From a phage: a stretch of 64,000 nucleotides of DNA. The stretch lies in NCBI GenBank assembly GCA_012813795.1, contig GCA_012813795.1_4087.1. The stretch is one strand, 5' to 3'. The translations under genes were made by a program, and so were the position numbers. Below the pieces are notes generated by a model. It was not told the origin of the DNA, searched no databases, and was given only the letters and a program-made list of their open reading frames with translations. Below are positions 1-64,000 of this stretch, piece by piece (position 1 is the stretch's first letter; each line of letters starts with the position of its first letter).

Positions 1-23
1 GACCTATTTACCAAATAACCACA

Positions 24-434
24 TTAATTGTAGTATGTTCTACCAACAGTAATGTGATATTTGAAATATTTGGACGGTAAGCCAAGTTCACTACGAATTT
101 GTGTAATGAAGTCATCTTCAAACTCAATGATAAAGAATGACCCTGGCTTCTTATTGTCTTTTACTTCTTCGATGAAAGGATTGAACTTAATCTTCACTTT
201 CATACCATCGTACTTTTTCCAGTACTCTGGATTTGGTGGCACTTCACCTCGAACAATACTGACGTGTGCTCCCCATTGTGGGTCTTTAACATCAATGTGT
301 AGATCAGTTCTGATGAAGTACTGGTAGTATCTAACCAACTGTAATGGAAGTTGCAGTACTAACCAGAAATCCTTCTTCTTTTTCATAGTCCCACGGTCTG
401 GATCATACACCAGAGTTCCTTCCATTTCAATCAT
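24..434 (-). CDS. 2H phosphoesterase family protein (LigT-like)
   Basis: 136 aa; two H-x-[TS]-x motifs (HVSIV and HITVG) about 70 aa apart, typical of the 2H superfamily; ATG at 432-434. Confidence 0.55.
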   Translation of the reverse strand: MIEMEGTLVYDPDRGTMKKKKDFWLVLQLPLQLVRYYQYFIRTDLHIDVKDPQWGAHVSIVRGEVPPNPEYWKKYDGMKVKIKFNPFIEEVKDNKKPGSFFIIEFEDDFITQIRSELGLPSKYFKYHITVGRTYYN

Positions 435-441
435 ATTTTAC

Positions 442-645
442 CTATAAATGTACATATATGTTTTTATTTTCAATACGAACATATGTTTCCAAAACATCTT
501 TTGGAATTTTATTACTTGTTTTGTACCATGTAGTATTATCTACTAAAACAAAAGTTTCACCGTCAGTTTCACCAAATGTACTCAATGCATAAATGAAGTA
601 ATTTGGTGCTGCACTACAATAGATATCAGCATTAATTTCAATCAT
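442..645 (-). CDS. hypothetical protein
   Basis: 67-aa track ORF, packed between minus-strand neighbours. Confidence 0.45.
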   Translation of the reverse strand: MIEINADIYCSAAPNYFIYALSTFGETDGETFVLVDNTTWYKTSNKIPKDVLETYVRIENKNIYVHL

Positions 646-648
646 ATT

Positions 649-783
649 TTACACCATTACAAAGCTTAATACAACTAATGTAATAAACACACCGACAATC
701 GCGGTCATTTCTGGATTTGCATCATAAGTGTAGCGAATACACTTAACAAAATCCGATCCAAATTTCTTTAATCCTTTCATCAT
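649..783 (-). CDS. small hydrophobic protein (44 aa)
   Basis: Below track cutoff; MMKGLKKFGSDFVKCIRYTYDANPEMTAIVGVFITLVVLSFVMV; AAGGA-like RBS about 7 nt upstream; C-terminal TM segment. Confidence 0.35.
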   Translation of the reverse strand: MMKGLKKFGSDFVKCIRYTYDANPEMTAIVGVFITLVVLSFVMV

Positions 784-832
784 TTTTTTCCTTTTTTAAC
801 ATCAAACATAAAGACTTCTACGTATACCACGG

Positions 833-1219
833 TCAATTCCCCAAATCTGTTAAGATATCTAAGATTATATCATGAATTTCGAAATCGGTGTAAGAAAAGT
901 TTCGTGTGAGCTTATCATTAACTTCATCAATGGACAACATTTGATATCCGACTAGTACACCCTGAACACGACTGCGTTTAACTCTTGAGTACAGGTAAGA
1001 AGGTACTGAAATACGAGTCCCAAGAAATGTAGTACCTTCCCCATATAACTCTACTGTATATCGGTTCTTACTTTTGTTTCTTACATTAACATAGCATTGT
1101 GGATAACGTCTAGGTGTAATACTTTCATACAACATAGATGCAAAACTATCTTTAGAATTATAATACTTTTTGACGATCTCTGTAAATCGTTTAGTATGTC
1201 TCTTTTTCCATCTCATCAT
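833..1219 (-). CDS. hypothetical protein
   Basis: 128-aa track ORF; 4-nt overlap with upstream gene. Confidence 0.5.
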   Translation of the reverse strand: MMRWKKRHTKRFTEIVKKYYNSKDSFASMLYESITPRRYPQCYVNVRNKSKNRYTVELYGEGTTFLGTRISVPSYLYSRVKRSRVQGVLVGYQMLSIDEVNDKLTRNFSYTDFEIHDIILDILTDLGN

Positions 1220-1677
1220 TTAGATCCTATAAAAACTAATGGAAAATATATCTCATCATAAGTTGAGAGTGATTTACATTTCTGAATCATCTCATAATGG
1301 ATAATTTCAGATTCAATATTAGGATATGGAACAGGTGTAGGTGTGGATGGTTGTAATGCATAAAATGTATCTAATCTATTATATTCACCCATTGGTGTAT
1401 TACTCACATCTGGATATCTAACTTCGATCATAACCTGACAATTCGTTGTGTCATCCCACACATAAAATAACTCTTGTGCTACGCATTGGACTGAATAATT
1501 ACCATCAAATGCACTAAACATCGCACCGTCATAGTATCGGAATTGCGGATTTGTATACCCAAGAATTTCAGCTAATATATTAGCTTTGTGTTCATAAAAA
1601 TCCATTTTCAATAGATTAGTATCTTTACAAACATCAACCAAACGATACAAGCATTGCAATATTTCACGATTAATCAT
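1216..1677 (-). CDS. hypothetical protein
   Basis: 153-aa track ORF. Confidence 0.5.
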   Translation of the reverse strand: MINREILQCLYRLVDVCKDTNLLKMDFYEHKANILAEILGYTNPQFRYYDGAMFSAFDGNYSVQCVAQELFYVWDDTTNCQVMIEVRYPDVSNTPMGEYNRLDTFYALQPSTPTPVPYPNIESEIIHYEMIQKCKSLSTYDEIYFPLVFIGSK

Positions 1678-1723
1678 AATATTACCTTAAAAATATTCCC
1701 CACATAGTGAGGAATATAAAGTT

Positions 1724-2534: not shown

Positions 2535-2548
2535 AACCAATCCTTAGT

Positions 2549-6071: not shown

Positions 6072-6791
6072 TCACTTCGTTCTCTCGTAACTCAAGAATT
6101 CGTTTCGTTATCTACGATAACTCACTCATTCATATTAATTAATATTGTATTGTACTTTTAAAGATTGACGGGATTTGTTGAGGACATTTTCATCCCCCCG
6201 CAGGGGAATGATATTAAAAAAGAACCAATGAAGGTTCTTGATTTTGACGCTGATGGCATCGGAATTTATCGAATTGCGAATTTCTCCATATTTTGGACGG
6301 TTCAAGGGTGTCCAATTTTTGGAGAACGAAAGCGGGTTGCTCTGTTTCTCTCTATCGCAGTCATATGCAACGGTCGCAGGTATTTTCATCCCCTGCACTA
6401 AAGTACTGGAACTATTCGATCAATTCAGTACTCGTTTTACTCAATTTTTGGGTGCAACTTTCCCGTAGAAAAATTGACCGCTTGTTTTAAGTAAAACTCC
6501 CTTAGCAAATCTGGTAAGGTGCGATCCTTATACATCTATCGAGGAACTCTCTGTATGCTTATCGGAGTTCTTTATTGAGCCGTGTCGCCGTGTGATCCGT
6601 GTCTTATTTCGCGTTTGTATGAATGCACTTGGATGGTACTAACGGGTTTCTTTTGCTCATCGCCTCAGTGGGAAGGCTCATCTATCCTTTACATTTTCAA
6701 GAGAAGTAGGTTCTTCTTGTCCGTTGTTAAAACGTCCACTGACATTTTCCATTACAATATAATTATAGCACAATATAAAGTATTGTCCCAA
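6072..6791 (-). other. non-coding, GC-richer island; candidate structured RNA or regulatory region
   Basis: About 720 bp with no convincing ORF in a genome that is otherwise densely coding; short overlapping ORFs in several frames; minus-strand -10-like TATAAT near 6762-6767; duplicated TTTTCATCCCC, CCGTGT x3, several hairpins; closed by a minus-strand terminator near 6220. Confidence 0.35.
6214..6239 (-). terminator. intrinsic terminator (minus strand)
   Basis: Stem AAGAACC/GGTTCTT with 6-nt loop, followed on the minus strand by a T-run. Confidence 0.5.
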
Positions 6792-8943: not shown

Positions 8944-9369
8944 TTAGCGTTTATCGATCATTGTTTGTACATGTTCTACGAGATGTACGATTCTGGAATC
9001 ACCTGATTCATACTTATCTTCGATCTCAACCTTAAATTCATCTTCAAGTTCCATGATCATTTCTACCCAGTCCAGTGAATCAAATTTGAATTTTTCTTCA
9101 ATTTCTAAGGAGGTTAAATGTAAATTCATCAGTACATCTGCCTCTGATACATCACCATAACGTCCAGAAATGAATTTTGCAATTGCTTTCTCAACGTCAG
9201 TTGGTCCACGTGTACGGTATTCTGGTTCAAGGAACCATTCACCCTTATTGATAGCTTCTAATTCTAGTTTAATTTCATGCATTACTTTATAACGATCAGT
9301 ACTTTTATGGATGCGGCTAACTTCGCGATTCAGTACACGTAGTGCATCAATAATTGTTGAATTCAGCAT
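8944..9369 (-). CDS. acyl-carrier-protein-like domain protein
   Basis: 141 aa; C-terminal ~85 aa resembles ACP, including the phosphopantetheine-site motif DSLDWVEMIMELEDEF (compare DSLDTVELVMALEEEF). Confidence 0.6.
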   Translation of the reverse strand: MLNSTIIDALRVLNREVSRIHKSTDRYKVMHEIKLELEAINKGEWFLEPEYRTRGPTDVEKAIAKFISGRYGDVSEADVLMNLHLTSLEIEEKFKFDSLDWVEMIMELEDEFKVEIEDKYESGDSRIVHLVEHVQTMIDKR

Positions 9370-9378
9370 ATAATCCTC

Positions 9379-10620
9379 TTATTTTTTACCATACCACTGC
9401 ATTTCTCGAATATCGATTAGAACTTTTGCAGCTAGTTGAATGTTTGGTTTCTTTGGTAGAACTGACTTAGGATACACCACATTGCGGATATAGTCAACCT
9501 TTTCATTGAAATAATCCATGACTTCTTCATATTTCCATTTGCCGTTGCGGATATCCATTAGCATATCAGCATCAGGACGTTTAACAAGGATAATACCGCT
9601 TTGTAATGCTTCTTCGGCACTATTTAGCAGCCTGATCGTATGCATAGCATGTTTTAAATCGAAGCCGTGCTGTGATTCCATAAGAGCACGTTTAGCATTA
9701 CGATTCTCTTTCCATTTGTGATAACTTTTACGGTTCTCACTGTTCTCACTGTATTCTTTTTCATTGAATTTGACAATGAGTTCAGGTCGCACTTTCAATT
9801 CTTCAGTACTGCGTTCTTTGTTGAAATAACGTAAAGAACCATCAGCGTTAATTGTACTTTCATTAGGATTGATAATAACACCAAAGATATTTTCACCGTA
9901 ATGAATTAATTCGTACCCATTGTTATAATCCAATAAGTTGAAATCACGGTCTAGTACTTTATCAGTACTGTAATTATGTACTAAACGTACAAAATGATAC
10001 TGTTTCAACGGATGAGTTGAAACTAACTGCAATGAAGTATCACGCATGTATTTTTCAAAATCAATTTTCTTAGCATTAAATGGATGTAGTTTAGAAGTAT
10101 CTAAACGTTCTACCAAATAGTGTGGGAAATTTTCATACATCCATGCTAAAGTTTCATCTACTGGAAAATCTTCTAAGATTTCATTTAGACGTTTTTCAGC
10201 AATACGCTCTTTATCCATCCACCCGTGGTGATTAGACATACGCTTAACCTGATTATATGCATAACCGGTATAAGAGAATGCAATCTTAGAACTAAGTAAT
10301 TGTTGATTGAATGTACGTAGATAATCATAGATTTCAGTACTTTCTACGATGTGTTCAGGATCGACCCATAGTGATTCAAGAATATTTGGGTTAGCCTCTG
10401 TATATAGTCTTAAGTACTGGTTTAGTTCATAGAATTTAGTATCTTCTTCTCTTGAATCAGAAACTTCCTTTACATTATAAAAAGGCGTAAGGATGAATTC
10501 TTTGTTAGCAAGAAAAATACCACGATAATCCGTATCACTTTCAGGTGTACTGGTTCCATACGCTTGTGAACCTGCTAAGTGCTTCACAATTGTTTGTTCA
10601 AGAAATTTGTTATTATTCAT
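9379..10620 (-). CDS. Pol-beta-superfamily nucleotidyltransferase (RlaP-like)
   Basis: 413 aa; N-terminal HLAGSQAYG...SDTDYRGIF matches the GS...[DE]x[DE] nucleotidyltransferase signature. Confidence 0.5.
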   Translation of the reverse strand: MNNNKFLEQTIVKHLAGSQAYGTSTPESDTDYRGIFLANKEFILTPFYNVKEVSDSREEDTKFYELNQYLRLYTEANPNILESLWVDPEHIVESTEIYDYLRTFNQQLLSSKIAFSYTGYAYNQVKRMSNHHGWMDKERIAEKRLNEILEDFPVDETLAWMYENFPHYLVERLDTSKLHPFNAKKIDFEKYMRDTSLQLVSTHPLKQYHFVRLVHNYSTDKVLDRDFNLLDYNNGYELIHYGENIFGVIINPNESTINADGSLRYFNKERSTEELKVRPELIVKFNEKEYSENSENRKSYHKWKENRNAKRALMESQHGFDLKHAMHTIRLLNSAEEALQSGIILVKRPDADMLMDIRNGKWKYEEVMDYFNEKVDYIRNVVYPKSVLPKKPNIQLAAKVLIDIREMQWYGKK

Positions 10621-20093: not shown

Positions 20094-21899
20094 TTACATG
20101 TGTTGTATACGTTGAATAACTTCAGCTTGTTTACCTTTATTGAACGGGCGACTATTTGGGGCACTAAGATATCCCGAAACTCTGCGAATAACCGACATTG
20201 TGCGTTCATTGCGGTTGTCACATACCGGACAATGGAAACCATTTTTATCTACACTAAATTCACCCTCAAAATCACATTCAAAACACTTATCGACCTTCTG
20301 ATTAATACCAAAATATGGAATTTTAGTATAAGCAAAATTTATTAATGTTTCAAGTGCTTGTATATTATTAGCTAGATTTGGTGTTTCAACATAGCTAATA
20401 TTACCACCATTGCTTAGATAAGCAAAGTTTTCCTCATAATCCCATTTAGCAAAAGGTGTACTTTCAACCCATACTGGTTGATGGAATGAGTTAGTGATAA
20501 AGTCACGTTTCAGTACTGAAGGATGTTTTGCCTCAATACAACGTGCAAATTTATAACATAGTGATTCTGCTGGTGTACCGTAAAGACTAAATGCAATGTT
20601 ACTCTCTTTTTTGAATTCATCACATTTTGCTTTCATGTAGTTCAAAATACTCATACAGAACTCTTTACTAATAGAACCAGTGAGGATCTCTGAACACTCA
20701 GATAACCCAACATAACCAATACTGATACTAGCATAACCATTATAAAATAAATGGTCAATAGTGTCTTCAGGATCAAGACGTGCAATCGCACCTTCAGCGA
20801 AAAGTATAGGGTTTTGTTTTGCCTTTGTACCTTTTAAACGTTCTACACGGTTCATCTGTGCTCTGTAAGCAATATTCATGTGCTCATCAATCTTATCAAA
20901 GAAATCACCATCAGACTCACTCTCAAGAGCAATTAGTGGTAAGTTGATAGACACAACGCCAAGGTTGAATCTACCATTGTATTTTTCTTCTCCTTGTATA
21001 TTTTCCCATTTCCCTAAGAAACTTCTGCATCCCATAGGAGTAACAGGAATAGTTGTGCTTCCAGTAACTTTTTGATTCAAAGGTACGGATACAAAATCAG
21101 GATAGATGCGTTTAGCTGCACAACGCATAGCTAATTGTTTTAAGTCATAATTACAATCAGTACTGTTCATATTAATTCCATCCTGAAGAAAGAATATTAC
21201 TTTAGGAAATACTGGAGTAATCTTATCTTTACCTAGTCCATTTTCATGTACTTTCAAATATTGTTCAGTGATTAGTTTTTCAAATTTAGATGTACCTAAT
21301 CCTAAACTCAAAGAAATGAACGCAGCCTGGCCATTAGTACTGATCATTGAGTTTGTTTGATATAGAATTGTTTGACAACCGTCATAAACTTCCTTACGCA
21401 ACTCATCTTCGATGAATTCAGTGCTAAGATTGTATTTCTTTTGTTTTTCTAGGAGTTTATCCCATGACTTTTGTACATATGGTGCAAGGCCAGTGTCAAT
21501 GTGAGCCAACGACTGACCACCGTATTGTGAGCTTGCAACAGCCTGAACGATCTGGGTTAGTACTGTACAAGCTACCCCAAAGCTTTTTGGTTCTTCAATC
21601 TTGGCACAACCAATCATGAAGCCATTAGCAAGCATATCAGGATAATTAACTAAACAACAGTTTGTTAATGGGCTAATGTAATAGTCTAAATCATGAATAT
21701 GACCGTAACCTTCATTATGCCACTTCATCAATTCATCAGGAATCACATCTTGGGAATAATGTTTAGAAAGAATACCTGCCAATAAATCACGATGTGTATT
21801 AACACATTTAGCGTCTTTATTTGCATTTTCGTTTGTTAAATCAGCGTTACTCTGGTTGAGGAAGTTAGTTACGTCCGTATATAATTTATCTATTTGCAT
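20094..21899 (-). CDS. nrdD: anaerobic ribonucleoside-triphosphate reductase
   Basis: 601 aa; C-terminal Zn-ribbon (CFECD...CPVCDN) followed by glycyl-radical motif RRVSGYL; ATG at 21897-21899 with AAGGAA RBS. Confidence 0.9.
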   Translation of the reverse strand: MQIDKLYTDVTNFLNQSNADLTNENANKDAKCVNTHRDLLAGILSKHYSQDVIPDELMKWHNEGYGHIHDLDYYISPLTNCCLVNYPDMLANGFMIGCAKIEEPKSFGVACTVLTQIVQAVASSQYGGQSLAHIDTGLAPYVQKSWDKLLEKQKKYNLSTEFIEDELRKEVYDGCQTILYQTNSMISTNGQAAFISLSLGLGTSKFEKLITEQYLKVHENGLGKDKITPVFPKVIFFLQDGINMNSTDCNYDLKQLAMRCAAKRIYPDFVSVPLNQKVTGSTTIPVTPMGCRSFLGKWENIQGEEKYNGRFNLGVVSINLPLIALESESDGDFFDKIDEHMNIAYRAQMNRVERLKGTKAKQNPILFAEGAIARLDPEDTIDHLFYNGYASISIGYVGLSECSEILTGSISKEFCMSILNYMKAKCDEFKKESNIAFSLYGTPAESLCYKFARCIEAKHPSVLKRDFITNSFHQPVWVESTPFAKWDYEENFAYLSNGGNISYVETPNLANNIQALETLINFAYTKIPYFGINQKVDKCFECDFEGEFSVDKNGFHCPVCDNRNERTMSVIRRVSGYLSAPNSRPFNKGKQAEVIQRIQHM

Positions 21900-23921: not shown

Positions 23922-23965
23922 ATAGTCTCCATAAAAAGTACTGCCACATGGACAGTACTGAACTA

Positions 23966-32030: not shown

Positions 32031-32063
32031 AGTTATAATACTCTCCTTATTAAATTAATATAG

Positions 32064-32087
32064 GGGATTATAAGAATCCCCTTTTTT
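32064..32087 (+). terminator. orphan plus-strand intrinsic terminator hairpin
   Basis: Stem GGGGATT/AATCCCC with 4-nt loop, followed by T6 on the plus strand, inside a minus-strand gene block. Confidence 0.4.
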
Positions 32088-32090
32088 GTA

Positions 32091-32693: not shown

Positions 32694-32704
32694 TGATATC
32701 TCCG

Positions 32705-32968
32705 TTATAAAAGGTGTGTTACATCTAAGATTGTGTACATGAAATACAATAGTAAACCCAAAATTATGAGTAAAATTGTATACGAAATTTTAAAGAAATA
32801 ATAAAAGTACTTTTCAGTTTTAGAAGAAAACTCACCATTTTCTTCAAGAAAACCACTCTTAAAATCACTTGCCATAATCACTGATAAAAGAACAATGATT
32901 CCATATGTAACTATAGTAGCATAGAAGATGAACTCTGTCCAGCCTTGAAGATGTGATAATTCTGTCAT
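32705..32968 (-). CDS. small membrane protein
   Basis: 87 aa with two TM segments. Confidence 0.45.
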   Translation of the reverse strand: MTELSHLQGWTEFIFYATIVTYGIIVLLSVIMASDFKSGFLEENGEFSSKTEKYFYYFFKISYTILLIILGLLLYFMYTILDVTHLL

Positions 32969-33094
32969 TTTTTGTTTCCTTGGTTGTTAATGTACAACCA
33001 TTATATCTTAAAATCGGGTGGCAGTACACCACCCTTAACCAAAATCATGAATTAGTATTAGGATTATATCATTGCTTCATAAAAAATACAACTT

Positions 33095-33700: not shown

Positions 33701-33899
33701 TTATTACCTCGGATTTGAGTTAAGGAACATAAATAATAGTATAATAATTGATCAATTATGTCAAGTACAAAACTGAACAATTATGACTGTAGTATCAAGT
33801 GTTTTTGTTAAGTTCATTGATTTACCAATTGACCATTTGAACTATGGTATCATATTGGGAGGCAGTTTGCAATCCCATTTTTTAAGGTAAGGAGATGTT
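33701..33899. promoter_or_regulatory. divergent promoter region
   Basis: 200-bp AT-rich spacer between divergently transcribed genes; contains CATAAATA and TATAAT near 33728-33745, TTGACC near 33829 and an AAGGAGA RBS for the plus-strand gene. Confidence 0.4.
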
Positions 33900-37187: not shown

Positions 37188-37223
37188 TTATAAATTAATT
37201 TTAATGCTAAGGAGAAATATTTT

Positions 37224-39743
37224 ATGGCAGAATTAAAATCAATTAGATTTAACAATAATGGTGTTGTAAACAGCACCATTTATAAAACCAGTACTATAAC
37301 GGTTACATATGACCCAGTTGATTGGTATGATCAAACTGGGAAATGGGTATATGATAGTACGTATATTAAAGTGTTGTATAGGAGTGGTGAGAAACTTATT
37401 TTCAAAACACTCAAAGAAGGAAACACAAATATATCATTTTCACCAACTAATTATGATTCTTTAAAACAAACGTGTACTGTTGATATTCATACCGATACAG
37501 TTCAAAGTATCTCATTGAATCCAACTGAAAACATGTTGAAGTATAGTTCTGAATTTGAAATCGATGTCACTTATAACCCACCAATTGGCACGGATCTTCC
37601 AACATGGACATATGATAAAAATGTTTTAACATATGATGCTGAAAAAAGTACAAGGGATAAAGCTTTCTTTAAAGTAAATTCTAGTGTTTTAAGTCCAGTA
37701 TCAGGTAAGATTACATGTACGTATGGTGTAGATTTATCAGCGGAAAGTTTTTATTACGTGTCCGAAAACCCCGCATCACGTGTAAAATTGTCTCCTGATA
37801 CATCAAACGTACTACTTGGTGATACGTTCTCAGTTAATATTTTATATGATCCACTTGGGTGTGATAAAACTGGTGTATGGAGTTACGATGATACATGTCT
37901 TGAATACAACGAATCACGCTCAACTTCTGATGTTGCATATTTTAAAGCAATTAAAACACCAGAAGGAAATAATGACACGTTAAAATTAACATATAAATGT
38001 GCATCATCCGTGTCCGATTCAACAACGTGTACAATATCATATGATCCATTGCAATCAGTTAAATTGACAACAATCCCAGCTTCATTGAATCCAGATGCAA
38101 TGATAAACGTAAAAGCTGGGGATGGGTTTAGTGTTAAGGTCACATATGTCCCAGACACCGCCAGACATGATGGTGTTTTGAATTTTAACCCACTATATTT
38201 CACCTATGAAAAAGACCAATCTGCACAAGACACTTTTTTAATCACACCAATTCTACCATCTATAGACACTGATGAACCTGTGCAGCCGATATCTTTTACT
38301 TCTAACGGGATTATATCAAATATACTCAATTTCACAATAGATTATTCTGACCTTGTTTCGGTATCTTTTGACCCACCAGAAGTTAATACAACCGCTGGTT
38401 CTGTATTTGGTGTAACTGTGATTTATAATCCAAGCACAGCTAAAAATGACGGTGAATGGAACATTGCTAATGTTCTGGATTATATTAAAAAAGGAACAAC
38501 AGTCGGTGATTCAACTTCATTCCAATCTTTGAAAGCCACAGTTGATAGTGATGGAAACCCATCAAGTATAGATATGGTTTACAAAAGTGGTTATATCAGT
38601 ACACCTATTAAATGTAACATTGATTATAGTGAGTTGAAATCTATTAATGTAAAATGTGATCCGTCATATCCACTGAATACTTCTCTTGGGATAATAGCAA
38701 CATATACACCAGACACCGCAAAACATGATGGTGTATGGACATGTTCATCAGATTTAATTCCAGGTGCATCTACTCCAGATCTTGGGTCATTCCGTACAGG
38801 TAAATTAGTAAATGCAAAAAGTGTAGTTACTGTAACATCTAAATCCAATAAAGATATTGGTGCATCATGTGGATTTACCTCAACTTATTCTAAGTTAAAA
38901 GGTATAACAGTAACACCACTTGGAACAACAACAGTTAAACCTGGTGATTCATTTGGTATACAAATATCGTATAATCCAAACACTGCACAGCATCTTGGTA
39001 TGTATAATTGGGATTTTAACCCTGATTATTTTGAATATAACTATGAGTTGTCAGAGCCAAACAAAGATATACAATATTTTAATGCTTTATTACCCACACC
39101 AGAAGAAGGTTCAGTACTAACATGTCTCCCACCTGAAGGGTCTGGTGCTACATCTGGTAAATGTGTAATAACCGTTAGTTATCCTCCAATCAAATCAGTG
39201 TCTATTGAACCACCTGAATCAACTCATAAATTTGGTGATGTGTTCAACCTTATCGTGAAATATGATCCAGATACAGCAAGAAAAATGGGTACATGGGAAT
39301 ATGATAAAGATCGAATAGCATTAGTTAATCCGGTAACCGACCTTAACGATCAAGCAACATTTTATGTTATCAATAACGGTATAGGTGGAGAAACGGATAT
39401 ATCATATTCATATTATCCAGGCGTAACTGCAACACATAAGTGTACTGTAGAATATGAAAACTTGGATACCCTAAGTTTAGTTCCTCCAAGAATCAAGAAA
39501 AAACCAGGTAATACTTTCTATATAAAAATCATATACACACCAGATGGTGCATTACATGATGGTACATGGACATACAATAAAACTGTATTTGAATATACAC
39601 AGGAAAGTACTAAAGATTTGGGAGTTTTTAAAATTTCCGACACTGCTCCTGAAGGTGCATACCAATTATCATATCAACCAAAAACTGCTGATCCAGATCA
39701 AACATTCCCACCTGTAATTTTACAATGCACTATTACAAAATAA
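37224..39743 (+). CDS. large Ig-like repeat protein 2
   Basis: 839 aa; about 9 repeat units of the same type; GGAGAAA RBS. Confidence 0.75.
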   Translation: MAELKSIRFNNNGVVNSTIYKTSTITVTYDPVDWYDQTGKWVYDSTYIKVLYRSGEKLIFKTLKEGNTNISFSPTNYDSLKQTCTVDIHTDTVQSISLNPTENMLKYSSEFEIDVTYNPPIGTDLPTWTYDKNVLTYDAEKSTRDKAFFKVNSSVLSPVSGKITCTYGVDLSAESFYYVSENPASRVKLSPDTSNVLLGDTFSVNILYDPLGCDKTGVWSYDDTCLEYNESRSTSDVAYFKAIKTPEGNNDTLKLTYKCASSVSDSTTCTISYDPLQSVKLTTIPASLNPDAMINVKAGDGFSVKVTYVPDTARHDGVLNFNPLYFTYEKDQSAQDTFLITPILPSIDTDEPVQPISFTSNGIISNILNFTIDYSDLVSVSFDPPEVNTTAGSVFGVTVIYNPSTAKNDGEWNIANVLDYIKKGTTVGDSTSFQSLKATVDSDGNPSSIDMVYKSGYISTPIKCNIDYSELKSINVKCDPSYPLNTSLGIIATYTPDTAKHDGVWTCSSDLIPGASTPDLGSFRTGKLVNAKSVVTVTSKSNKDIGASCGFTSTYSKLKGITVTPLGTTTVKPGDSFGIQISYNPNTAQHLGMYNWDFNPDYFEYNYELSEPNKDIQYFNALLPTPEEGSVLTCLPPEGSGATSGKCVITVSYPPIKSVSIEPPESTHKFGDVFNLIVKYDPDTARKMGTWEYDKDRIALVNPVTDLNDQATFYVINNGIGGETDISYSYYPGVTATHKCTVEYENLDTLSLVPPRIKKKPGNTFYIKIIYTPDGALHDGTWTYNKTVFEYTQESTKDLGVFKISDTAPEGAYQLSYQPKTADPDQTFPPVILQCTITK

Positions 39744-39770
39744 TAGACTGAAATTACTTTACAAAAAAAA

Positions 39771-39792
39771 TGTGGTTGAATATTCAACCACA
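39771..39792. repeat. perfect 22-bp palindrome
   Basis: TGTGGTTGAATATTCAACCACA preceded by A8, 20 nt upstream of the RBS of 39814. Confidence 0.7.
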
Positions 39793-39813
39793 TAATAAGA
39801 AGGAAACATAATT

Positions 39814-41439
39814 ATGATAGAAGATTCAAAAAATCTTATTTCAGTTAGTTTAAACAAAAGAACTATTAGAACTTCTGTTCGTGATGTTAACACATTATAT
39901 GTTAGTTTTAATCCACCTGACTATATTAATCAGGTTGGAACATGGACATATGATGAACAGTATATTGAAATGATCACACAAGATAATTTGGTTTTTGTTT
40001 TTAAATCTATAAAAAGTGGTGTAACCACCATAACATACACACCACGTGATAATAAAGCATTATCGAAGAATTGTATAGTTAATATTGAAAAAATACCATT
40101 ATCATCAATTAGTCTTAACCCAAATTATATAACTTTATACAAAGGTCAAACTTTTGATATTGATATATCATATATCCCAGATGGAGCAGTTCATTCGGGT
40201 AATTGGAGTAATTTAAACAATGATATATTGTATATAGGTCAACAAAGTACACCTGATAAATCAAGAATGCAAGTACTAACAACTGATGCTAAGATGATAA
40301 CTTTATATTATACCAGTGGCGAAATATCAGTTCCTTTGAATTGTACTATATTGAACAACCCAGCAGATGAAATTATTTTCGATCCACCATCACCAATTAA
40401 TGTAACAGTTGGTGAGAGTTTTTTTGTAAACATAAACTATGCACCAGAAAATGCGGATAAGGTTGGATTCTGGGAATATGATGATTCAGTACTGATGTTA
40501 TTGAATGATAGTGATAAGGCATCCAGTGCACATTTTGTGGCTACCAAAAAAACCACATCAACTGGAACTGAACTTAAATTCCGTTCAGGTGATGTGTACT
40601 CAACGTTACAGTGCTTTATAACTCCTGGTGTTTTAGATTTATTAACATTAACACCTAGTTATGAAACGGTGGTTGTTGGTGACGCGTTTGACATTGGAAT
40701 AACCTATTACCCAGAAGACATAATTCACAAAGGTATATGGGAATATGATTCTACATATTTCAAAAAAATGTTCGATGACTCAAATACTGCAACATTTAGA
40801 TTAATCAAAAAATCCGACATACCATTAAAATTAAGATATATCTCTTATGGGAGAGCATTTAATAATATATGCACTACTGTTGAAAATGGTGATTTAGTTT
40901 CATTACAATTAAACCCTAATTCCGAATCAGTTGAGGTTGGTAAAAGTTTTGATATCGCAATAACATATAAACCTGATAATGCTTTACATAGTGGTATATG
41001 GGATTTCGATTCGGAATATATTAAATTGGAAAAATCAAGTACAGTGGATAAAGCAACATTTACAGTACTGAAATATAATCCAAATCCATTAACATTAACT
41101 TATAAATCAGGTAAAACAACTGCAACAAACAAATGTATTACTGTAAAAAATACACCAGTATTAAGTAGTATTAAAGTATCCCCAGAATCAACTGAAATGA
41201 AAGTTGGTGATACAGTATTATTATCAATTTCATACAACCCTAATACAGTAGAGCATATGGGAATGTGGTATTATGATAAAAAACTATTCAAATTAATAGA
41301 CACAGGTCAAACACATGACTATGGTATATTTGAATGCTTGGCGGTGTCAGACGCAAAATCACCAATAGTATTTTCAAGTGCTGGAAATGCTGATGCTTGT
41401 ATTGTCACAACTAAAGAAAAAACAACTAAAGAGGATTAA
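39814..41439 (+). CDS. large Ig-like repeat protein 3
   Basis: 541 aa; about 6 repeat units; AAGGAAA RBS. Confidence 0.75.
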   Translation: MIEDSKNLISVSLNKRTIRTSVRDVNTLYVSFNPPDYINQVGTWTYDEQYIEMITQDNLVFVFKSIKSGVTTITYTPRDNKALSKNCIVNIEKIPLSSISLNPNYITLYKGQTFDIDISYIPDGAVHSGNWSNLNNDILYIGQQSTPDKSRMQVLTTDAKMITLYYTSGEISVPLNCTILNNPADEIIFDPPSPINVTVGESFFVNINYAPENADKVGFWEYDDSVLMLLNDSDKASSAHFVATKKTTSTGTELKFRSGDVYSTLQCFITPGVLDLLTLTPSYETVVVGDAFDIGITYYPEDIIHKGIWEYDSTYFKKMFDDSNTATFRLIKKSDIPLKLRYISYGRAFNNICTTVENGDLVSLQLNPNSESVEVGKSFDIAITYKPDNALHSGIWDFDSEYIKLEKSSTVDKATFTVLKYNPNPLTLTYKSGKTTATNKCITVKNTPVLSSIKVSPESTEMKVGDTVLLSISYNPNTVEHMGMWYYDKKLFKLIDTGQTHDYGIFECLAVSDAKSPIVFSSAGNADACIVTTKEKTTKED

Positions 41440-41442
41440 ATC

Positions 41443-43644
41443 ATGTCAAAAGATGATCAATTAACATCTGTTACCCTACAACCAGAATCAGTAACACTGA
41501 ATGTGGGTGACAATAAAATTGTATATGCAGTTTATACACCAAATACATATACACCAAAAAAAGGTAAATGGATATATGATGCAAATATTGTATCTGTTAC
41601 ACATGAAGAAGATACCTTTATGCAATTCATTGCAGTAAAACCTTCTGAAACTGAAATAACGTACATTCCATTGGGTGCACCTGAATTTGCTTGTAGTACA
41701 GTTGTTACAATTAAAGGTACTGATCCAACAGATGATTTGGTATTAGATCCAGAAAACGAAACAGTTCAGGTCAATACTGATTTTTATATTAATGTAAAAT
41801 ATAATCAAGCAGATGGTATCCCAACATGGAAATATGACCAATCTGTAGTTAAATATATGCCTGATAGTACACCTAGTAAAGCACACTTTAAAGCACTAAA
41901 AACTACTGCGAATAGTATTCCTTTGGTTTGTGAATGCGGAAATAACACTAAAATGAATTTATGTACAGTTGTTGATACTGCGGCCACCATATCATTGAAT
42001 CCACAACACGTAACTAAACAAGTTGGTGACGACTATTATGTTGATATTTTTTACTCCAAAAAAGTTCAAGATCCAGTAGTTACATGGGACGGTACTGATG
42101 AGTTTTTAGAATTACAACCTGATAGCAACCCATACCGTGCTCATTTCAAAGTTGTAAAATATTCTGAAGATCTTGTTTCAAGAAGAATTACAACTTCAAT
42201 GGGTAAAAGTGCCACACATACCTGTGTTACACGTTATAGTGATTTGAAAAACATTTTCATTGATTATCCAAGTAAAAATTTAATGGTTGGTGACCAATTT
42301 AAATTAACAGCGTTGTATTATCCAGATACGGCAAATCATGATGCTAAATGGTCGTTTGATTCTGGTAATTTTATTATTGATAGTAGTAGAACCACGCCAA
42401 ATGAAGCATACTTCACTGCACTAAAAGCAACATCAGGGGCAGACTTCAAGAGTATTACATTGAGTAGTGGTACATTTAAAGATGAATGTAAATGTATAAT
42501 TAATGAATCCTCATACTCAGAAGAAGATAATGTGCCAGTACTAAATCAACGTGCAAGTGGGGATTTGGATAGTGTTGTAGTAACTCCATTAACAATTGCA
42601 TCCAGAGTTGGGCAGCCTAAAATTATATCTGCGGTTTTCGAACCAAGAGATTATAGTGATAAATCAGGAACTTGGATGTATGATCCACAAACACTTGACG
42701 TATTGTCTGAACAAGATAACTATATAATCATAAAACCGAACCATATTAGTAATACATTTGTTGAATTTGTTTCCAATGATAAACCTTCATTTAGTTCTAA
42801 TTGTTCCATCGTGGTTTCAAGTGATGGTTTTGTAATTTCACCAACACACCAACATGTAAAATTAACTGAAGATTTTTATATTGATGTTTTATTCGATGAA
42901 TCGAAAGGTAAACCAGTATGGAGATACGATACTAATTACATAAAAATGTTGGATGACAGTACTGATACCAAACCACATTTTCAAGCATTTAATATGACAA
43001 GTGAGGATGAATTAATAACCAAATTAGTATGTTCGTATGACAATATGGAACAAATATTCACTTGTTATATTGATAAAAATACTAACCCAATATCATGTCA
43101 CCCATCAAAATCATTACAATTTATGTCATCTGATTTTTGGATAAATGTTGCATATGATAAAGAAAATACAAAATCTTCTTTATTGGATGTCGATTTTATT
43201 ACATGGGATGATGATAATGAATACGTTGAACTACAACCTGACAGTACCTCTTTCGTAGCCCATTTCAAAGTTGTGAAATATAAAAATGGTCAAATTACAA
43301 GAACAGCAACCTCCAAATCTGGACATACCGCCACATTTGCCATATCATTATATTCACCATATACTTACATCGATATGACACCACAATTTGAAACTTATTC
43401 TATGAATAGTATTATAGTTTTGAGCATAAATTACGGAGGTAGTCCATATACACCTGAATACAAAAAATTCAATGACATGTTAAATTATGATTCTAGATTT
43501 CTGCAATTGGAGGATGATAGTACTGGCGATAAACTATACTTCACTCCTTTATCTCCAACAGGAAATAACTTTACAACTGTTATATTTTCCGACGATAACA
43601 CACGTTTGATGTCTGCAAAAAGTTGCATTACAATTAAAAAATAA
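41443..43644 (+). CDS. large Ig-like repeat protein 4
   Basis: 733 aa; about 8 repeat units; starts 3 nt after the stop of protein 3. Confidence 0.75.
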   Translation: MSKDDQLTSVTLQPESVTLNVGDNKIVYAVYTPNTYTPKKGKWIYDANIVSVTHEEDTFMQFIAVKPSETEITYIPLGAPEFACSTVVTIKGTDPTDDLVLDPENETVQVNTDFYINVKYNQADGIPTWKYDQSVVKYMPDSTPSKAHFKALKTTANSIPLVCECGNNTKMNLCTVVDTAATISLNPQHVTKQVGDDYYVDIFYSKKVQDPVVTWDGTDEFLELQPDSNPYRAHFKVVKYSEDLVSRRITTSMGKSATHTCVTRYSDLKNIFIDYPSKNLMVGDQFKLTALYYPDTANHDAKWSFDSGNFIIDSSRTTPNEAYFTALKATSGADFKSITLSSGTFKDECKCIINESSYSEEDNVPVLNQRASGDLDSVVVTPLTIASRVGQPKIISAVFEPRDYSDKSGTWMYDPQTLDVLSEQDNYIIIKPNHISNTFVEFVSNDKPSFSSNCSIVVSSDGFVISPTHQHVKLTEDFYIDVLFDESKGKPVWRYDTNYIKMLDDSTDTKPHFQAFNMTSEDELITKLVCSYDNMEQIFTCYIDKNTNPISCHPSKSLQFMSSDFWINVAYDKENTKSSLLDVDFITWDDDNEYVELQPDSTSFVAHFKVVKYKNGQITRTATSKSGHTATFAISLYSPYTYIDMTPQFETYSMNSIIVLSINYGGSPYTPEYKKFNDMLNYDSRFLQLEDDSTGDKLYFTPLSPTGNNFTTVIFSDDNTRLMSAKSCITIKK

Positions 43645-43664
43645 TTATTATATTAAATAATTTA

Positions 43665-43684
43665 AAGGAGCCATAAGGCTCCTT
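43665..43684 (+). terminator. intrinsic terminator closing the plus-strand cassette
   Basis: Stem AAGGAGCC/GGCTCCTT with 4-nt loop followed by TTTCTTTT; sits between convergent genes. Confidence 0.55.
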
Positions 43685-43689
43685 TTCTT

Positions 43690-43992
43690 TTATAGTTCAA
43701 TATTACCAGATAACACACTGTAATCTTTATTCATAAGTTCACAAACATATGATACAGTTGAAACATCTTTGTAATAAATTGTTAACCCAAAACGACCACG
43801 GATACGTTCTTCTTTTTCTTGATACATGAATGTTCGTACAACGTAGTACTTATTATTCTTTGGTTCATAACGTGCTTCGTACCCTTTAACTTTGTAAGCA
43901 CTAGTAGAAGTACAAATAATCAATGACACAATAACCCACACGATTATAAAGAATGCCATTAGTCCAAGAAAAACAAAAGCTTGAATCATCAT
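43690..43992 (-). CDS. membrane-anchored hypothetical protein
   Basis: 100 aa; N-terminal TM (FVFLGLMAFFIIVWVIVSLII). Confidence 0.5.
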   Translation of the reverse strand: MMIQAFVFLGLMAFFIIVWVIVSLIICTSTSAYKVKGYEARYEPKNNKYYVVRTFMYQEKEERIRGRFGLTIYYKDVSTVSYVCELMNKDYSVLSGNIEL

Positions 43993-44468
43993 TTTAATCC
44001 CATGTCAAATATACAGTTAACTTCAATCCCAGCATCTTCCAGTACTTTAATAGCTTCTAGTGGAGTGCGAGGATACGATTTTTCGTAAATTACACGAGAA
44101 ATACCACTACCAGCGATTAACTTAGAACAAGTATAGCACGGTTGGAGTGTGGTGTAAAGTGTTGCACCCTGACGTTCTTGTGGTGAACTATATAGTAATG
44201 CATTCATTTCCGCATGGATCTCATGAATGTTGCTCCACTCGTGATGTAAGTGTTTTGCATCTTCATCAATCCAATTTTGAAATTGACCATTGTTTACGAG
44301 ATGTTTATTAACATCACAACAGTTAGGTTGCTTTGATGGTGTACCGTTATATCCAGTACTCAATACTCGGTTATTCTTTACAATAACACAACCTACTTTC
44401 TGGGAAAGACACTTACTTTCCTCAGCAACGACACTGGCTATCTTCAACCACGTTGTATGTTTCATCAT
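43989..44468 (-). CDS. cd: dCMP deaminase
   Basis: 159 aa; N-terminus WLKIASVVAEESKC parallels T4 Cd; zinc motifs HAEMNAL and PCYTCSK. Confidence 0.85.
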   Translation of the reverse strand: MMKHTTWLKIASVVAEESKCLSQKVGCVIVKNNRVLSTGYNGTPSKQPNCCDVNKHLVNNGQFQNWIDEDAKHLHHEWSNIHEIHAEMNALLYSSPQERQGATLYTTLQPCYTCSKLIAGSGISRVIYEKSYPRTPLEAIKVLEDAGIEVNCIFDMGLK

Positions 44469-57614: not shown

Positions 57615-57637
57615 TATATCACCTAAATTAAAAGAAA

Positions 57638-57657
57638 AGGGATCAGTACTGATCCCT
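57638..57657 (-). terminator. intrinsic terminator (minus strand) after pseT
   Basis: Perfect palindrome AGGGATCAGTACTGATCCCT (with CAGTACTG at its centre), followed on the minus strand by TTTTCTTTT. Confidence 0.5.
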
Positions 57658-57666
57658 TTGTAATAA

Positions 57667-61769: not shown

Positions 61770-62344
61770 AATTCTATCCCCGTGTCGGTTAATTTTGCCC
61801 CGTCCATGTACCTGACAGTTATTTCAATACGACTCTCGGTACTCAATTTCTGAAGTTCACTGTAGTACAATTTAAATTCTTCAAAGAACTCAAACGGTGG
61901 AATATCGAATAGAGTACTCATCTGGAAGTGCTCAGGTAAGCCAAAATCTAATATATTAATCTTAGGAATAAGACCATCTGATGCTGCACCTTCAGGTGTA
62001 CTGCTATCTGCTATATAAAACATAGAATCACCATGACGCTGGATAACGAATATACAATCATCTTCAGTTACATAAATTATATTTCCTAGGTATGGATCAT
62101 TATCACACCACTCATCATGGACGAGTTCTTCAACTTGAAGTAAATCTTTTATAATTCCCTGCCCACTATCATCAACTCGAATATGTAAACTAGAATCATC
62201 TTTACTCAACCAGCGGTATCTGGCATCTGATTCTGATTCCATGAATGGATATTTGGAAAAATCCATATCAGTACCGTTATAATACCAATTGTACCACTCA
62301 TTACGCATAGTAATCAGCTTAGTACTTAATTCTACAATATTCAT
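61766..62344 (-). CDS. hypothetical protein
   Basis: 192-aa track ORF, acidic. Confidence 0.5.
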   Translation of the reverse strand: MNIVELSTKLITMRNEWYNWYYNGTDMDFSKYPFMESESDARYRWLSKDDSSLHIRVDDSGQGIIKDLLQVEELVHDEWCDNDPYLGNIIYVTEDDCIFVIQRHGDSMFYIADSSTPEGAASDGLIPKINILDFGLPEHFQMSTLFDIPPFEFFEEFKLYYSELQKLSTESRIEITVRYMDGAKLTDTGIEF

Positions 62345-62640
62345 TTTAGTTTTAACCTTTTAGCAACATATTCTCTTAATTTTCCATCAGGAAGTTCTAC
62401 TACAAAATATGGATGATATGTTAGTCTCAGTGTAACCCTTTTTATTACACCTCGGTCATATGATATGGGAATTCCATAGGGATCATCAATTTCAACTTCC
62501 TTGCCATATAACATTGCATTGCAGGTATAGGTGTATTGCGTGAGTATACCGTGCATAGCACTGACGGAACCACCACTGCTCCATCTGGCAGCATCTGCGA
62601 GCATTGTTATCGTACTACTAACTAATTGTATTTTGTCCAT
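62341..62640 (-). CDS. hypothetical small protein
   Basis: 99 aa; contains MLYGKEVEI, possibly a distant member of the small-protein family. Confidence 0.45.
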   Translation of the reverse strand: MDKIQLVSSTITMLADAARWSSGGSVSAMHGILTQYTYTCNAMLYGKEVEIDDPYGIPISYDRGVIKRVTLRLTYHPYFVVELPDGKLREYVAKRLKLK

Positions 62641-62683
62641 AATGTACCTACAAAAAAGACCAGCAATCCATGCTGGCCTGTAC

Positions 62684-62962
62684 TTATTTTAATTCTTTAT
62701 ACGTGTATATACCAACAGTATCATTTGAGAAAATAATATAAAAATACACACCATGTGTATCAAAATCAATTTCATCAATGATACCTGATTTATTCATTGA
62801 TTTATGTGTAACTTCTTTATTAGTATAAAGTGGAATAAACTCAGAAGAAAAATCATCTATCAAAGCCCTTATATCGTCTATGTATGGTTTATTTTTAATA
62901 TACATATCACCATAAAGTTCTAAAAGATATTCATATATCCACACATCTCTTTGTAAATTCAT
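62684..62962 (-). CDS. hypothetical small protein
   Basis: 92 aa; contains LYTNKEVTHK. Confidence 0.45.
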   Translation of the reverse strand: MNLQRDVWIYEYLLELYGDMYIKNKPYIDDIRALIDDFSSEFIPLYTNKEVTHKSMNKSGIIDEIDFDTHGVYFYIIFSNDTVGIYTYKELK

Positions 62963-62970
62963 AACTTACC

Positions 62971-63699
62971 TTAGAAGTAAATCATACCAAGTAATTCAGA
63001 ATCATCAGGTCTGTTATAATCTTGCTTCTTAACTTTGAAGTAGAAAGACTCATGTTCTTCTAAATTATATCTCTTTTTAAGGCAACGTGTATAAGTTTGA
63101 CAGTTAGGTGTGACCCATTCATAAATGTGGACACCATTCTCATCATAACCATTTACACTACAACGATTGCCTTCGTGCTTTTTGTAGTTTTTACTCTTTT
63201 CAGTAAATTCACGAGCACATGTGGTATGTGGTTTTTTATAATCAAAAGGTACTTCAGTTATACGGAAATAATAGAAAAATTCGTCTTCATCATATCCCAA
63301 GAGCACTGTGTTAGTTTCACGTACATTGTAATGATTCTTACTTTTTGCTTCATTTTCGTATATATCTTTCAGTACTTCATCAAATACTACATCACTTGCA
63401 GCATTCGGGTTTGACACACCTGATACACGGCGTTCAATAATAAAATCGGTAAACTTACGTTCTTCTTCAATATCACCGTTCATATACAGACTAACAAACT
63501 TATCCTTGTATGTTTTGACTGAATATTGTTTACCTTGCACTTCACTGTATACATCAGCTAGTAAATTCTCTTGTCCGCATTGGACACCACTTACTGAATA
63601 TGCAGTTGCATGTTCTGCCATTACGGATGTTAGCATTTGGAAATTTGCAATGTTTAATTGGTTTGCTAACTCGCTGGCAAATCTGATACGGTCAATCAC
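62971..63699 (-). CDS. hypothetical protein
   Basis: 242-aa track ORF. Confidence 0.5.
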   Translation of the reverse strand: MIDRIRFASELANQLNIANFQMLTSVMAEHATAYSVSGVQCGQENLLADVYSEVQGKQYSVKTYKDKFVSLYMNGDIEEERKFTDFIIERRVSGVSNPNAASDVVFDEVLKDIYENEAKSKNHYNVRETNTVLLGYDEDEFFYYFRITEVPFDYKKPHTTCAREFTEKSKNYKKHEGNRCSVNGYDENGVHIYEWVTPNCQTYTRCLKKRYNLEEHESFYFKVKKQDYNRPDDSELLGMIYF

Positions 63700-63757
63700 T
63701 CTACACGCTCCTTGTGTTAGATATTATTCCATACCAACAATTATATCACTACTTATA

Positions 63758-63997
63758 CTACTGTCCCGCTTTATAACAATAAAGATTCTCTAATTTGAAG
63801 TCCGCAAGGTCACATTCAGAACGTACTCGGTTCTTGTTCCAGTACAAAATACGAATCCTTTCATAATCACGATAAACACTAATAATGCTTTTGTGCTTGG
63901 ATTTATAGTATTCCTGCACAGTCACAAGATACACGGTCCTCAATAAAGACTTAATGGGATAGGGCATATTCTGTGCTGTAGTAATACTATAAATCAT
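63758..63997 (-). CDS. hypothetical small protein
   Basis: 79-aa track ORF starting 3 nt from the window end. Confidence 0.4.
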   Translation of the reverse strand: MIYSITTAQNMPYPIKSLLRTVYLVTVQEYYKSKHKSIISVYRDYERIRILYWNKNRVRSECDLADFKLENLYCYKAGQ

Positions 63998-64000
63998 CTT

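Follow-up and report, generated by a model that had tools for sequence, protein, structure and literature searches.

The phage contig GCA_012813795.1_4087.1, analysed here over 64,000 nucleotides (34% G+C; this whole stretch is called the window in the following), is densely populated by one short palindrome. The hexamer AGTACT occurs 155 times, or about once per 413 bp, and 49 copies of the octamer CAGTACTG are present. The window matches Escherichia phage A4 (ON286972, 355.5 kb, Asteriusvirus) with 97.8% identity over 54 kb, and judged by this match it is a strain of A4, a Rak2-like jumbo phage. A preceding inspection of the letters alone, here termed the sequence-only reading, had taken it for a T4-like phage; the Rak2-like Asteriusvirus stands only distantly in the T4 superfamily. 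Genes were assigned by greedy calls of open reading frames (ORFs) made for this analysis. AGTACT is the commonest hexamer of the window, and TCAGTACT, CAGTACTG and AGTACTGA are its three most frequent octamers. Successive 10-kb segments hold 28, 19, 25, 18, 26 and 31 copies of AGTACT, the last 4 kb another 8. The coordinates of all features are collected in Table 1.

The excess persists under every null model applied. Dinucleotide-preserving shuffles of the window yielded 16.8 ± 4.2 hexamers (maximum 25) and 0.98 ± 0.94 octamers (maximum 4). The estimates made by eye in the sequence-only reading, 45–50 octamers with about one expected and more than 100 hexamers, agree with these exact counts, and all 17 octamer positions that it gave are present in the exact-match table. 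It had regarded counts within the range of a codon-preserving shuffle as evidence against its claim. With proteins kept fixed and synonymous codons shuffled, however, the coding sequences would hold 40.7 ± 5.8 hexamers and 3.1 ± 1.7 octamers, compared to 143 and 46 observed. Shuffling of the codon order in the same coding sequences gave 23.5 and 1.0. Even a third-order Markov simulation of the whole window, a null that already takes in the enriched sub-words, reached only 56.7 ± 6.9 hexamers and 4.8 ± 2.1 octamers. Base composition, codon usage and protein sequence are ruled out as the cause by these four nulls. Among the 64 palindromic hexamers AGTACT shows the highest ratio of observed to expected counts in the window with 7.2, followed by 2.5 for the runner-up, and many others are at zero. 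Taking window and A4 together the ratio is about 7–9, and not well below 1 as in restriction avoidance.

The phenomenon extends over the A4 genome. In 350 kb we counted 902 copies of AGTACT (about 100–118 expected) and 223 of CAGTACTG, and words containing AGTACT top every k-mer ranking. Most of the genome has 11–35 copies per 10 kb, and the first 30 kb of the record, a region of tiny ORFs and promoters, has 38–78 per 10 kb. Outside this early region coding and non-coding DNA carry equal densities (2.25 and 2.38 per kb). In the window the sites are spread among genes in a Poisson-like manner (χ2/df 0.97) and roughly evenly along gene length.

Enrichment is independent of the reading frame. The 143 genic sites comprise 71 in the frame AGT-ACT (Ser-Thr), 51 in nnA-GTA-CTn (Val-Leu) and 21 in nAG-TAC-Tnn, and exceed synonymous shuffles 2.9-, 4.5- and 4.0-fold, respectively. 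Ser-Thr in frame, described before as the usual case, thus covers only about half of the genic sites. A C-ending codon before the motif, also part of that description, is found in 44 of the 71 in-frame sites and is missing in the others. Compared to amino-acid composition, the coding sequences of the window contain 174 Ser-Thr dipeptides with 107 expected and 154 Val-Leu with 104 expected, an excess of about 1.5–1.6-fold that is not shared by the reversed dipeptides Thr-Ser and Leu-Val. This shows that the DNA word has reshaped the phage's protein sequences, and the dipeptide excess is better read as its consequence.

The flanking bases point in the same direction. In the window, 57% of the half-sites have C at position −1 (background 17%), where G is disfavoured, and positions −2 to −4 favour T. 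This preference is symmetric and extends to a palindrome of 10–12 bp, tTCAGTACTGAa, with a tTC...GAa extension, the pattern expected of a dimeric reader of duplex DNA. A signal at the RNA level is unlikely because it would not need symmetric flanks and because the density in non-coding DNA is the same; the shared RNA element considered in the sequence-only reading can therefore be set aside. Its more general proposal, selection at the level of nucleic acid and not of codon usage, is supported by the enrichment in all frames and by the conservation of synonymous positions described below. A gene-conversion footprint and a modification or protein-binding site, which it had also listed, are both possible, and we favour the latter.

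To follow the trait through the clade, relatives were ranked by the identity of their DNA polymerases, and AGTACT was counted in syntenic regions of 43–50 kb; apart from A4 all comparisons within the clade refer to such samples. NrdD was dropped as a clade marker, as it is horizontally exchanged. All sampled clade members are enriched: A4 (Escherichia coli; 94 observed, 12 expected), 121Q (E. coli; 141, 14), RaK2 (Klebsiella; 96, 13), Munch (Salmonella; 65, 12), GAP32 (Cronobacter; 90, 12), CBB (Pectobacterium; 97, 13) and XbC2 (Xanthomonas; 93, 13). The outgroups Vibrio phage 2.275.O (8, 12) and PA5oct (3, 14) show no enrichment. Since the excess is found throughout the clade on several hosts and is missing in the outgroups, it follows phage phylogeny across hosts.

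Comparison of the sites between relatives reveals purifying selection. Only 4 of 140 AGTACT sites (2.9%) differ between window and A4, compared to 9.5% of background hexamers. Towards 121Q 61% of the sites are conserved (background 29.5%), and between A4 and RaK2, Munch, GAP32 or CBB 26–31% (background 15–17%). Because conservation of the individual sites is partial while the density is constant across genera, turnover of the sites is slow and their number is constrained. Within AGTACT, 81.9% of the third-codon positions match 121Q, in comparison to 62.6% of all third positions (p = 5e-7), and 255 of 255 match A4, in comparison to 95.9% (p = 6e-5). With synonymous positions in the hexamer so strongly conserved, selection acts on the DNA. 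The C and G flanks of the octamer show no excess conservation, and the C preference at −1, strong in Asteriusvirus and RaK2, fades in GAP32 and CBB and is nearly gone in Munch. For these two reasons it is the hexamer AGTACT that is under selection, and the octamer reflects a preference of particular lineages. We conclude with high confidence that AGTACT is a word of duplex DNA which is under selection for density and is specified by the phage lineage.

A subset of the copies occupies fixed positions in early promoters. On the gene strand of the first 30 kb of the A4 record we scanned all exact TATAAT boxes (n = 54), with the opposite strand as control. AGTACT starts exactly 7 nt upstream of 16 of these boxes (AGTACTG followed directly by TATAAT) and exactly 27 nt upstream of 18, where AGTAC is fused to the −35 element TTGaCA. 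Neither position is occupied on the control strand. The two promoter copies are consequently 20 bp apart, one fused to the −35 hexamer and one abutting the −10 hexamer, and the consensus of the family is AAAAAGTACTTGaCAAtAGtttttAGTACTGTATAATagTTTACAT. About 34 copies in this part of A4 are thus elements of sigma-70 early promoters. No spacing periodicity was found apart from an excess at 18–23 bp, which stems from these promoters. The module occurs in 5–22 copies per Asteriusvirus genome and is also present in members infecting Salmonella, Klebsiella, Yersinia, Erwinia, Serratia and Pectobacterium, often in or near annotated terminal repeats. Both registers keep AGTACT in an alignment of A4, Serratia BF, RaK2 and Munch, which represent four genera.

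A near-identical scaffold, including the downstream TTTCACATCGAGAGCGGGAAC hairpin region, is found in the unrelated Phapecoctavirus nepoznato (about 150 kb), but there the two registers read AACACT and AGTGTT. AGTACT is therefore not required for recognition by σ70, and the shared scaffold suggests promoter exchange or convergence between large coliphages. The promoter AGTACT is an overlay specific to the clade, and at its positions occupancy or modification would control access to −35 and −10.

The sites do not form a family of longer elements. Their flanking contexts are unique, with at least 7 mismatches over 24 flanking bases for the closest pair and a median of 10; copies without extended flanking similarity rule out a dispersed repeat of the type of repetitive extragenic palindromic sequences or miniature inverted-repeat transposable elements. 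No palindromic extension at all is seen at 98 of the 155 sites, and one alone sits in a long palindrome, which excludes a hairpin element. That palindrome, perceived in the sequence-only reading as a terminator at 57638–57657, is real and spans 24 bp, and so is the inverted pair placed by it at 23936–23959. A GC-rich hairpin followed by a U run 3′ of a gene is present at the former, plausibly at the latter, and at no other AGTACT site. A general role in termination is ruled out, as only one of six terminator-like hairpins between 46 and 64 kb contains AGTACT and the 153 other sites are not terminators. Because of this low count we regard the terminator and the inverted pair as incidental by-products of an abundant palindrome.

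Table 1. Positions of the features discussed in the text (window coordinates unless a phage record is named).
Feature	Position	Strand	Remarks
Octamer CAGTACTG (starts)	1876, 3261, 4252, 4984, 7104, 7447, 9804, 9963, 11914, 11951, 15796, 16338, 19172, 19271, 20511, 21158, 22777, 23764, 23953, 25746, 26658, 26749, 27535, 27582, 29418, 29603, 30278, 30703, 31099, 31225, 40487, 41063, 42957, 45367, 46525, 47564, 47693, 48056, 48923, 49458, 50166, 50889, 53652, 54277, 55393, 56698, 57644, 59930, 60542		exact matches
Paired AGTACT copies, 25 bp apart	6402-6432		intergenic
Strain difference to A4	9348-9380		two A4 genes missing
nrdD	20094-21899	-	4 AGTACT, equal to genome-average density
Paired AGTACT copies, 17 bp apart	23937-23959	-	intergenic; pair in RNA as 9-bp stem, then UUUUU; terminator-like; z = -1.4 over 51 nt (not significant)
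Octamer-free stretch	31232 to 40487		
Strain-variable block	34260-44024	+	four virion structural genes with immunoglobulin (Ig) domains; AGTACT density lower yet elevated (15 sites in 9.8 kb)
Paired AGTACT copies, 21 bp apart, GAGTACTGATCTGCTCTAGTGCAGTACTG	46505-46531		gene boundary; weak hairpin, z = -0.4 (not significant)
Perfect 24-bp palindrome AAAGGGATCAGTACTGATCCCTTT	57636-57659	-	intrinsic-terminator-like; 10-bp stem, GUAC loop, U-rich tail; between two minus-strand genes; minimum free energy -16.3 kcal/mol, z = -3.27
A4 stretch without annotated genes	L001:4139-6138		outside the window; 2 kb
Tandem array of octamer CTAGACGG in A4	L001:5244-5350		13 copies, within the preceding stretch
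A4_405, A4_406, A4_407	L002:16334-18022 (A4 66334-68022)		HNH-family endonuclease, methyltransferase, cytidylyltransferase
A4_120	L006:42647-44545 (A4 292647-294545)		DNA cytosine methyltransferase, 632 aa
A4_238-241	L007:42745-50000 (A4 342745-351008)		annotated as DNA condensation proteins
Promoter scaffold of Phapecoctavirus nepoznato	L022, 66602-66700		AACACT and AGTGTT at the two registers

Several regions differ from A4 or stand out in other respects. The block of structural genes is longer and different from its A4 counterpart, with four plus-strand genes (1095, 839, 541 and 733 aa) where A4 has 3.2 kb. At about 9350 the window is without the 3.6-kb tail-fibre and tail protein I genes A4_503–504, which A4 carries at the matching position. 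Both differences are strain-variable modules of the host-range type. The closest relatives of nrdD outside the clade belong to other phage groups. The A4 stretch without annotated genes holds about 21 AGTACT (about one per 95 bp) and several strong promoter-like sequences besides the tandem array; it may be an origin, packaging or regulatory region near the terminal repeat.

For comparison with the host and with other coliphages, further sequences were counted. A 50-kb sample of E. coli K-12 contains 3 AGTACT with 11.6 expected, so that 2.4 copies per kb in the phage face 0.06 per kb in this sample, about 40-fold above the host. No AGTACT was found in about 42 kb each of W115, a Krischvirus that shares its isolation host strain with A4, and of A7_1, a member of the Vequintavirinae (7.4 and 8.4 expected). 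There it is one of 11–16 six-base palindromes that are wholly absent, which is a classic signature of restriction avoidance. The window avoids palindromes too: GGATCC, CTGCAG, CCATGG, CAGCTG and GGTACC are all missing where a Markov model expects about 6–7.5, and the avoided set is largely the same as in these two unrelated coliphages. AGTACT, a liability for other coliphages, is yet piled up here; the about 900 sites would therefore have to be protected when the DNA enters the cell. Protection at this stage would in turn favour a covalent mark over a protein that is made after infection.

A second word behaves in the opposite way. GCGC does not occur in the window (composition predicts 55 copies, a maximal-order Markov model 26) nor in 350 kb of A4 (332 and 184 expected), and it is likewise at zero in the samples of 121Q, RaK2, Munch, GAP32, CBB and XbC2. 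The outgroups, the Vibrio phage and PA5oct, do not avoid it, so that the distribution of GCGC absence in the clade matches that of the AGTACT excess. In the 50-kb sample of E. coli GCGC is abundant with 6.8 copies per kb. The absence suggests a GCGC-directed nuclease of phage or host, and a literature search on GCGC avoidance yielded no report. Further words under-represented in the A4 genome and the window are GATC, CTAG, TCGA and CCGG (0.57, 0.48, 0.56 and 0.34 of expectation) as well as the non-palindromic AGTC/GACT (about 0.4), and this in a phage that has a methyltransferase of the Dam family. Of the E. coli Chi sequence GCTGGTGG, the main coding strand of A4 carries 21 copies and the opposite strand two, with about 1–2 per strand estimated from base composition; the window has one. 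Among tetramers, TGGT, GGTG and CTGG show the strongest excess in every clade member.

Two methyltransferases encoded by A4 were considered as candidates. About 4 kb beyond the end of the window lies A4_406, a small N6-adenine methyltransferase of the Dam family (PF05869), in a conserved trio with a preceding HNH-family endonuclease and a cytidylyltransferase. It belongs to a clade-restricted lineage with at least 60% identity in about 51 records, the next relatives being below 47%, and is unrelated to the adenine methyltransferase of A7_1. The adjacency of methyltransferase and transferase is also annotated in Munch, and 121Q has a cytidyltransferase at the corresponding position. Pfam gave no matches for nine unannotated neighbours of the Dam-like gene, and PHROGs added only the HNH-family nuclease. 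A4_406 is the only nameable candidate for an AGTACT writer.

The second methyltransferase, A4_120, is a cytosine C5 enzyme split after motif I by a Hint and LAGLIDADG intein; after splicing it would have about 290 aa and resemble small enzymes of the Dnmt3/HhaI type. RaK2 DNA was reported to be heavily methylated, with bisulfite data pointing to CpG methylation (PMC3622015), and A4_120 is accordingly disfavoured as the AGTACT writer. The "DNA condensation proteins" A4_238–241 were considered as readers and ruled out, as they are RCC1-like beta-propellers. Their name, which goes back to "regulator of chromosome condensation", is an artefact of annotation transfer and no indication of DNA binding.

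Taken together, we tentatively prefer, at less than even confidence, an explanation in which AGTACT is a covalently modified, dense self-mark that also gates early promoters. We infer from the patterns described a modification of AGTACT, a phage factor that reads it, the identity of the enzyme and the use of the mark. The reader would be symmetric, presumably dimeric, and specified by the phage lineage and not by the host. A clade-specific enzyme, with A4_406 beside its HNH nuclease as the candidate, would modify AGTACT in virion DNA and so make a chemical label of "self" out of a word that exposes other coliphages to restriction. The heavy methylation reported for RaK2 DNA (PMC3622015) counts in favour of such an enzyme. 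This label would cover the whole chromosome at sub-kilobase resolution, and through the two copies in each early promoter, early transcription would depend on whether the DNA is modified or occupied.

A number of points weigh against this explanation. Protective methylation alone would predict a neutral frequency and not an 8-fold excess, so that a putative added benefit of density is required. Enzymes of the PF05869 Dam family are usually GATC-specific or non-specific, and specificity for AGTACT would be unusual. Judging by the RaK2 bisulfite data (PMC3622015), CpG seems to be the target of the clade's C5 methyltransferase. The idea that AGTACT is dangerous rests on two control phages with about 42 kb each. 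The window contains none of the promoter-register copies, and a repressor with its operator would account for these fixed registers no less well than a methyl mark.

The last point leads to the main rival, which we consider unlikely: AGTACT would be a non-covalent site for a phage-encoded dimeric DNA-binding protein that serves as repressor at the early-promoter operator and as a chromosome-wide organiser, similar to a sequence-nucleated nucleoid protein. Protein p6 of phi29, a genome-coating factor that keeps early promoters repressed and assists replication, is comparable in role. The palindromic preference over 10–12 bp agrees with such a protein, as do the two promoter copies at a distance of 20 bp, overlapping −35 and abutting −10 in a conserved family. 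Flanks that vary between genera around a constant core are expected of an evolving protein–DNA interface, and the densest sites lie at the non-coding, promoter-rich end of the genome. However, a repressor would be titrated by about 900 sites that lie within genes in both orientations, and once bound there it could stand in the way of elongating RNA polymerase. If the protein is synthesised only after infection, it comes too late to shield the entering DNA from AGTACT-specific restriction, which other coliphages evidently avoid. No candidate emerged, A4_238–241 being of the beta-propeller type.

The preferred covalent mark can also be extended to the missing GCGC, in a form that we regard as speculative and more doubtful. 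Rak2-like jumbo phages would then tell their own DNA from that of the host by a two-part barcode and not by global base substitution, AGTACT being dense and covalently marked and GCGC eliminated. Phage enzymes would spare phage DNA and destroy or silence host DNA, and the state of the promoter AGTACT would time the early shut-off.

Molecular drive could in principle accumulate a word without any function. A mutational, repair or gene-conversion bias in phage replication and recombination would steadily turn near-cognate sequences into AGTACT, a drive similar to that of the highly iterated palindrome HIP1 of cyanobacteria. The uniform, Poisson-like spread without gene preference and the turnover of individual sites at constant density would be expected in this case. 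One-step neighbours are enriched as well (AGTACA/TGTACT 1.9–2.4-fold, AGCACT/AGTGCT 1.5–1.9-fold), and biased conversion would also mimic the conservation of synonymous positions. On the other hand, there is no depleted donor neighbour as in very-short-patch repair, with AGTATT/AATACT at 1.15 and 0.92 of expectation, and no Vsr-like gene was seen in the A4 annotation. Pure drive explains neither the exact conserved registers in early promoters nor the tolerance of a restriction target that other coliphages purge, and we therefore hold it to be improbable.

A host protein as reader of the sites is very improbable. The obvious case is the nucleoid-occlusion factor SlmA of Enterobacterales, whose 12-bp palindromic site GTGAGTACTCAC carries AGTACT as positions 4–9 and requires G1, T2, purine 3, A4 and G5; DNA-bound SlmA antagonises FtsZ (PMC3020112). 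A site-rich genome would activate or titrate SlmA and block division of the host, in agreement with the rarity of AGTACT in the E. coli sample and with the fact that all sampled clade members but one infect Enterobacterales. The flanks largely refute this idea and rule out SlmA as the reader: the core A4 G5 Y6 is present, but never with G1, T2 and purine 3 in both halves. Full sites GTRAGYRCTYAC are absent among the 902 cores of A4 and the 155 of the window, and SlmA-type half-sites are depleted 3.4-fold (15 with 51 expected), with GAGTACTC occurring only 4 times. Where SlmA needs a purine at position 3, 45–57% of the half-sites have C. Furthermore, the trait tracks phage phylogeny including the Xanthomonas phage, and unrelated phages of the same hosts are without AGTACT.

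Still less probable is a role in replication, with the phage primase or another initiation enzyme starting preferentially at AGTACT and the word enriched since a 6-bp site would otherwise be too rare. One site per 400 bp is roughly the density that lagging-strand priming requires, and a palindrome functions independently of the strand and would serve forks running either way. Characterised primases, however, use trinucleotide sites that need no enrichment, and both the promoter registers and protection from restriction would be left unexplained.

Least probable of all is a cause at the level of protein or RNA, be it a preference for Ser-Thr (AGU-ACU) and Val-Leu, a codon-pair bias matched to the phage tRNAs or an RNA element AGUACU recognised by an RNA-binding protein or RNase: the sites are almost all transcribed, the two dipeptides are in excess and the phage tRNA-Ser(GCU) reads AGU, but tRNA-Thr is UGU (mainly ACA) and not ACU-specific, which makes the tRNAs a weak, partially fitting driver, and enrichment in all three frames with proteins fixed, equal non-coding density, symmetric flanks and the lack of positional bias along genes speak against it.

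Phage genomics treats short palindromes almost wholly as avoided, whereas AGTACT is under positive selection in every reading frame, at the expense of the protein sequence. Its excess is conserved over at least five genera of 350-kb phages and built into their early promoters, and this implies that phage DNA is read or written in a sequence-specific way by a factor not described so far. Literature searches on iterated palindromes of phages and on AGTACT or ScaI in jumbo phages found no prior report, in line with the sequence-only reading, which knew of none. The phage characterisation papers looked at report no restriction or methylation experiments. For phages that are developed for therapy, about 900 sites of the ScaI/Eco255I type and the lack of GCGC bear on host range, restriction barriers and genome engineering.

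Among known systems, the T-even phages are similar to the covalent mark favoured here in the proposed logic only. In T4 hydroxymethylcytosine replaces every cytosine, which protects the DNA from nucleases and lets phage functions distinguish self from host. An AGTACT mark would instead be site-specific and would need enrichment to become dense. Uptake signal sequences, DNA uptake sequences (USS/DUS) and Chi are short words that occur about once per kb in all frames through a genome-wide process, sometimes as inverted pairs in terminators. They are asymmetric, orientation-dependent and cellular, with known readers (uptake receptor, RecBCD), whereas AGTACT is its own reverse complement and resides in a virus. 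Restriction-site avoidance concerns the same class of words, AGTACT being a 6-bp palindrome and the site of ScaI/Eco255I, and the same genome does avoid other palindromes and GCGC. For AGTACT the sign is reversed to an 8-fold excess under purifying selection.

SlmA sites share the identical central AGTACT, are read by a dimeric helix-turn-helix protein and are scattered through genes without a role in transcription (PMC3020112). In contrast to the phage word they number about 50 per 4.6 Mb in E. coli, compared to about 900 per 0.35 Mb, and the required G1 and purine 3 are disfavoured in the phage.

The closest known phenomenon is HIP1, and the analogy drawn in the sequence-only reading holds at the statistical level, as both are iterated palindromes in coding and non-coding DNA that are kept by selection. 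Each is a single over-represented short palindrome at about one copy per 0.4–1 kb (2.4 per kb for AGTACT). HIP1 has the sequence GCGATCGC, occurs once per 1131 bp in Synechocystis and is methylated in its core by orphan methyltransferases (PMC6604393). AGTACT differs by its AT-rich core without GATC, by a selected core of 6 and not 8 bp and by its location in an Asteriusvirus phage in place of a cellular, cyanobacterial chromosome. Fixed promoter registers and a strong background of palindrome avoidance, for neither of which HIP1 is known, also set it apart. By analogy, the methylation of the HIP1 core (PMC6604393) may serve as a precedent for the mechanism proposed here, and a lytic phage, which can be recoded, sequenced for its methylome and assayed within days, offers an experimentally tractable counterpart to the HIP1 problem.

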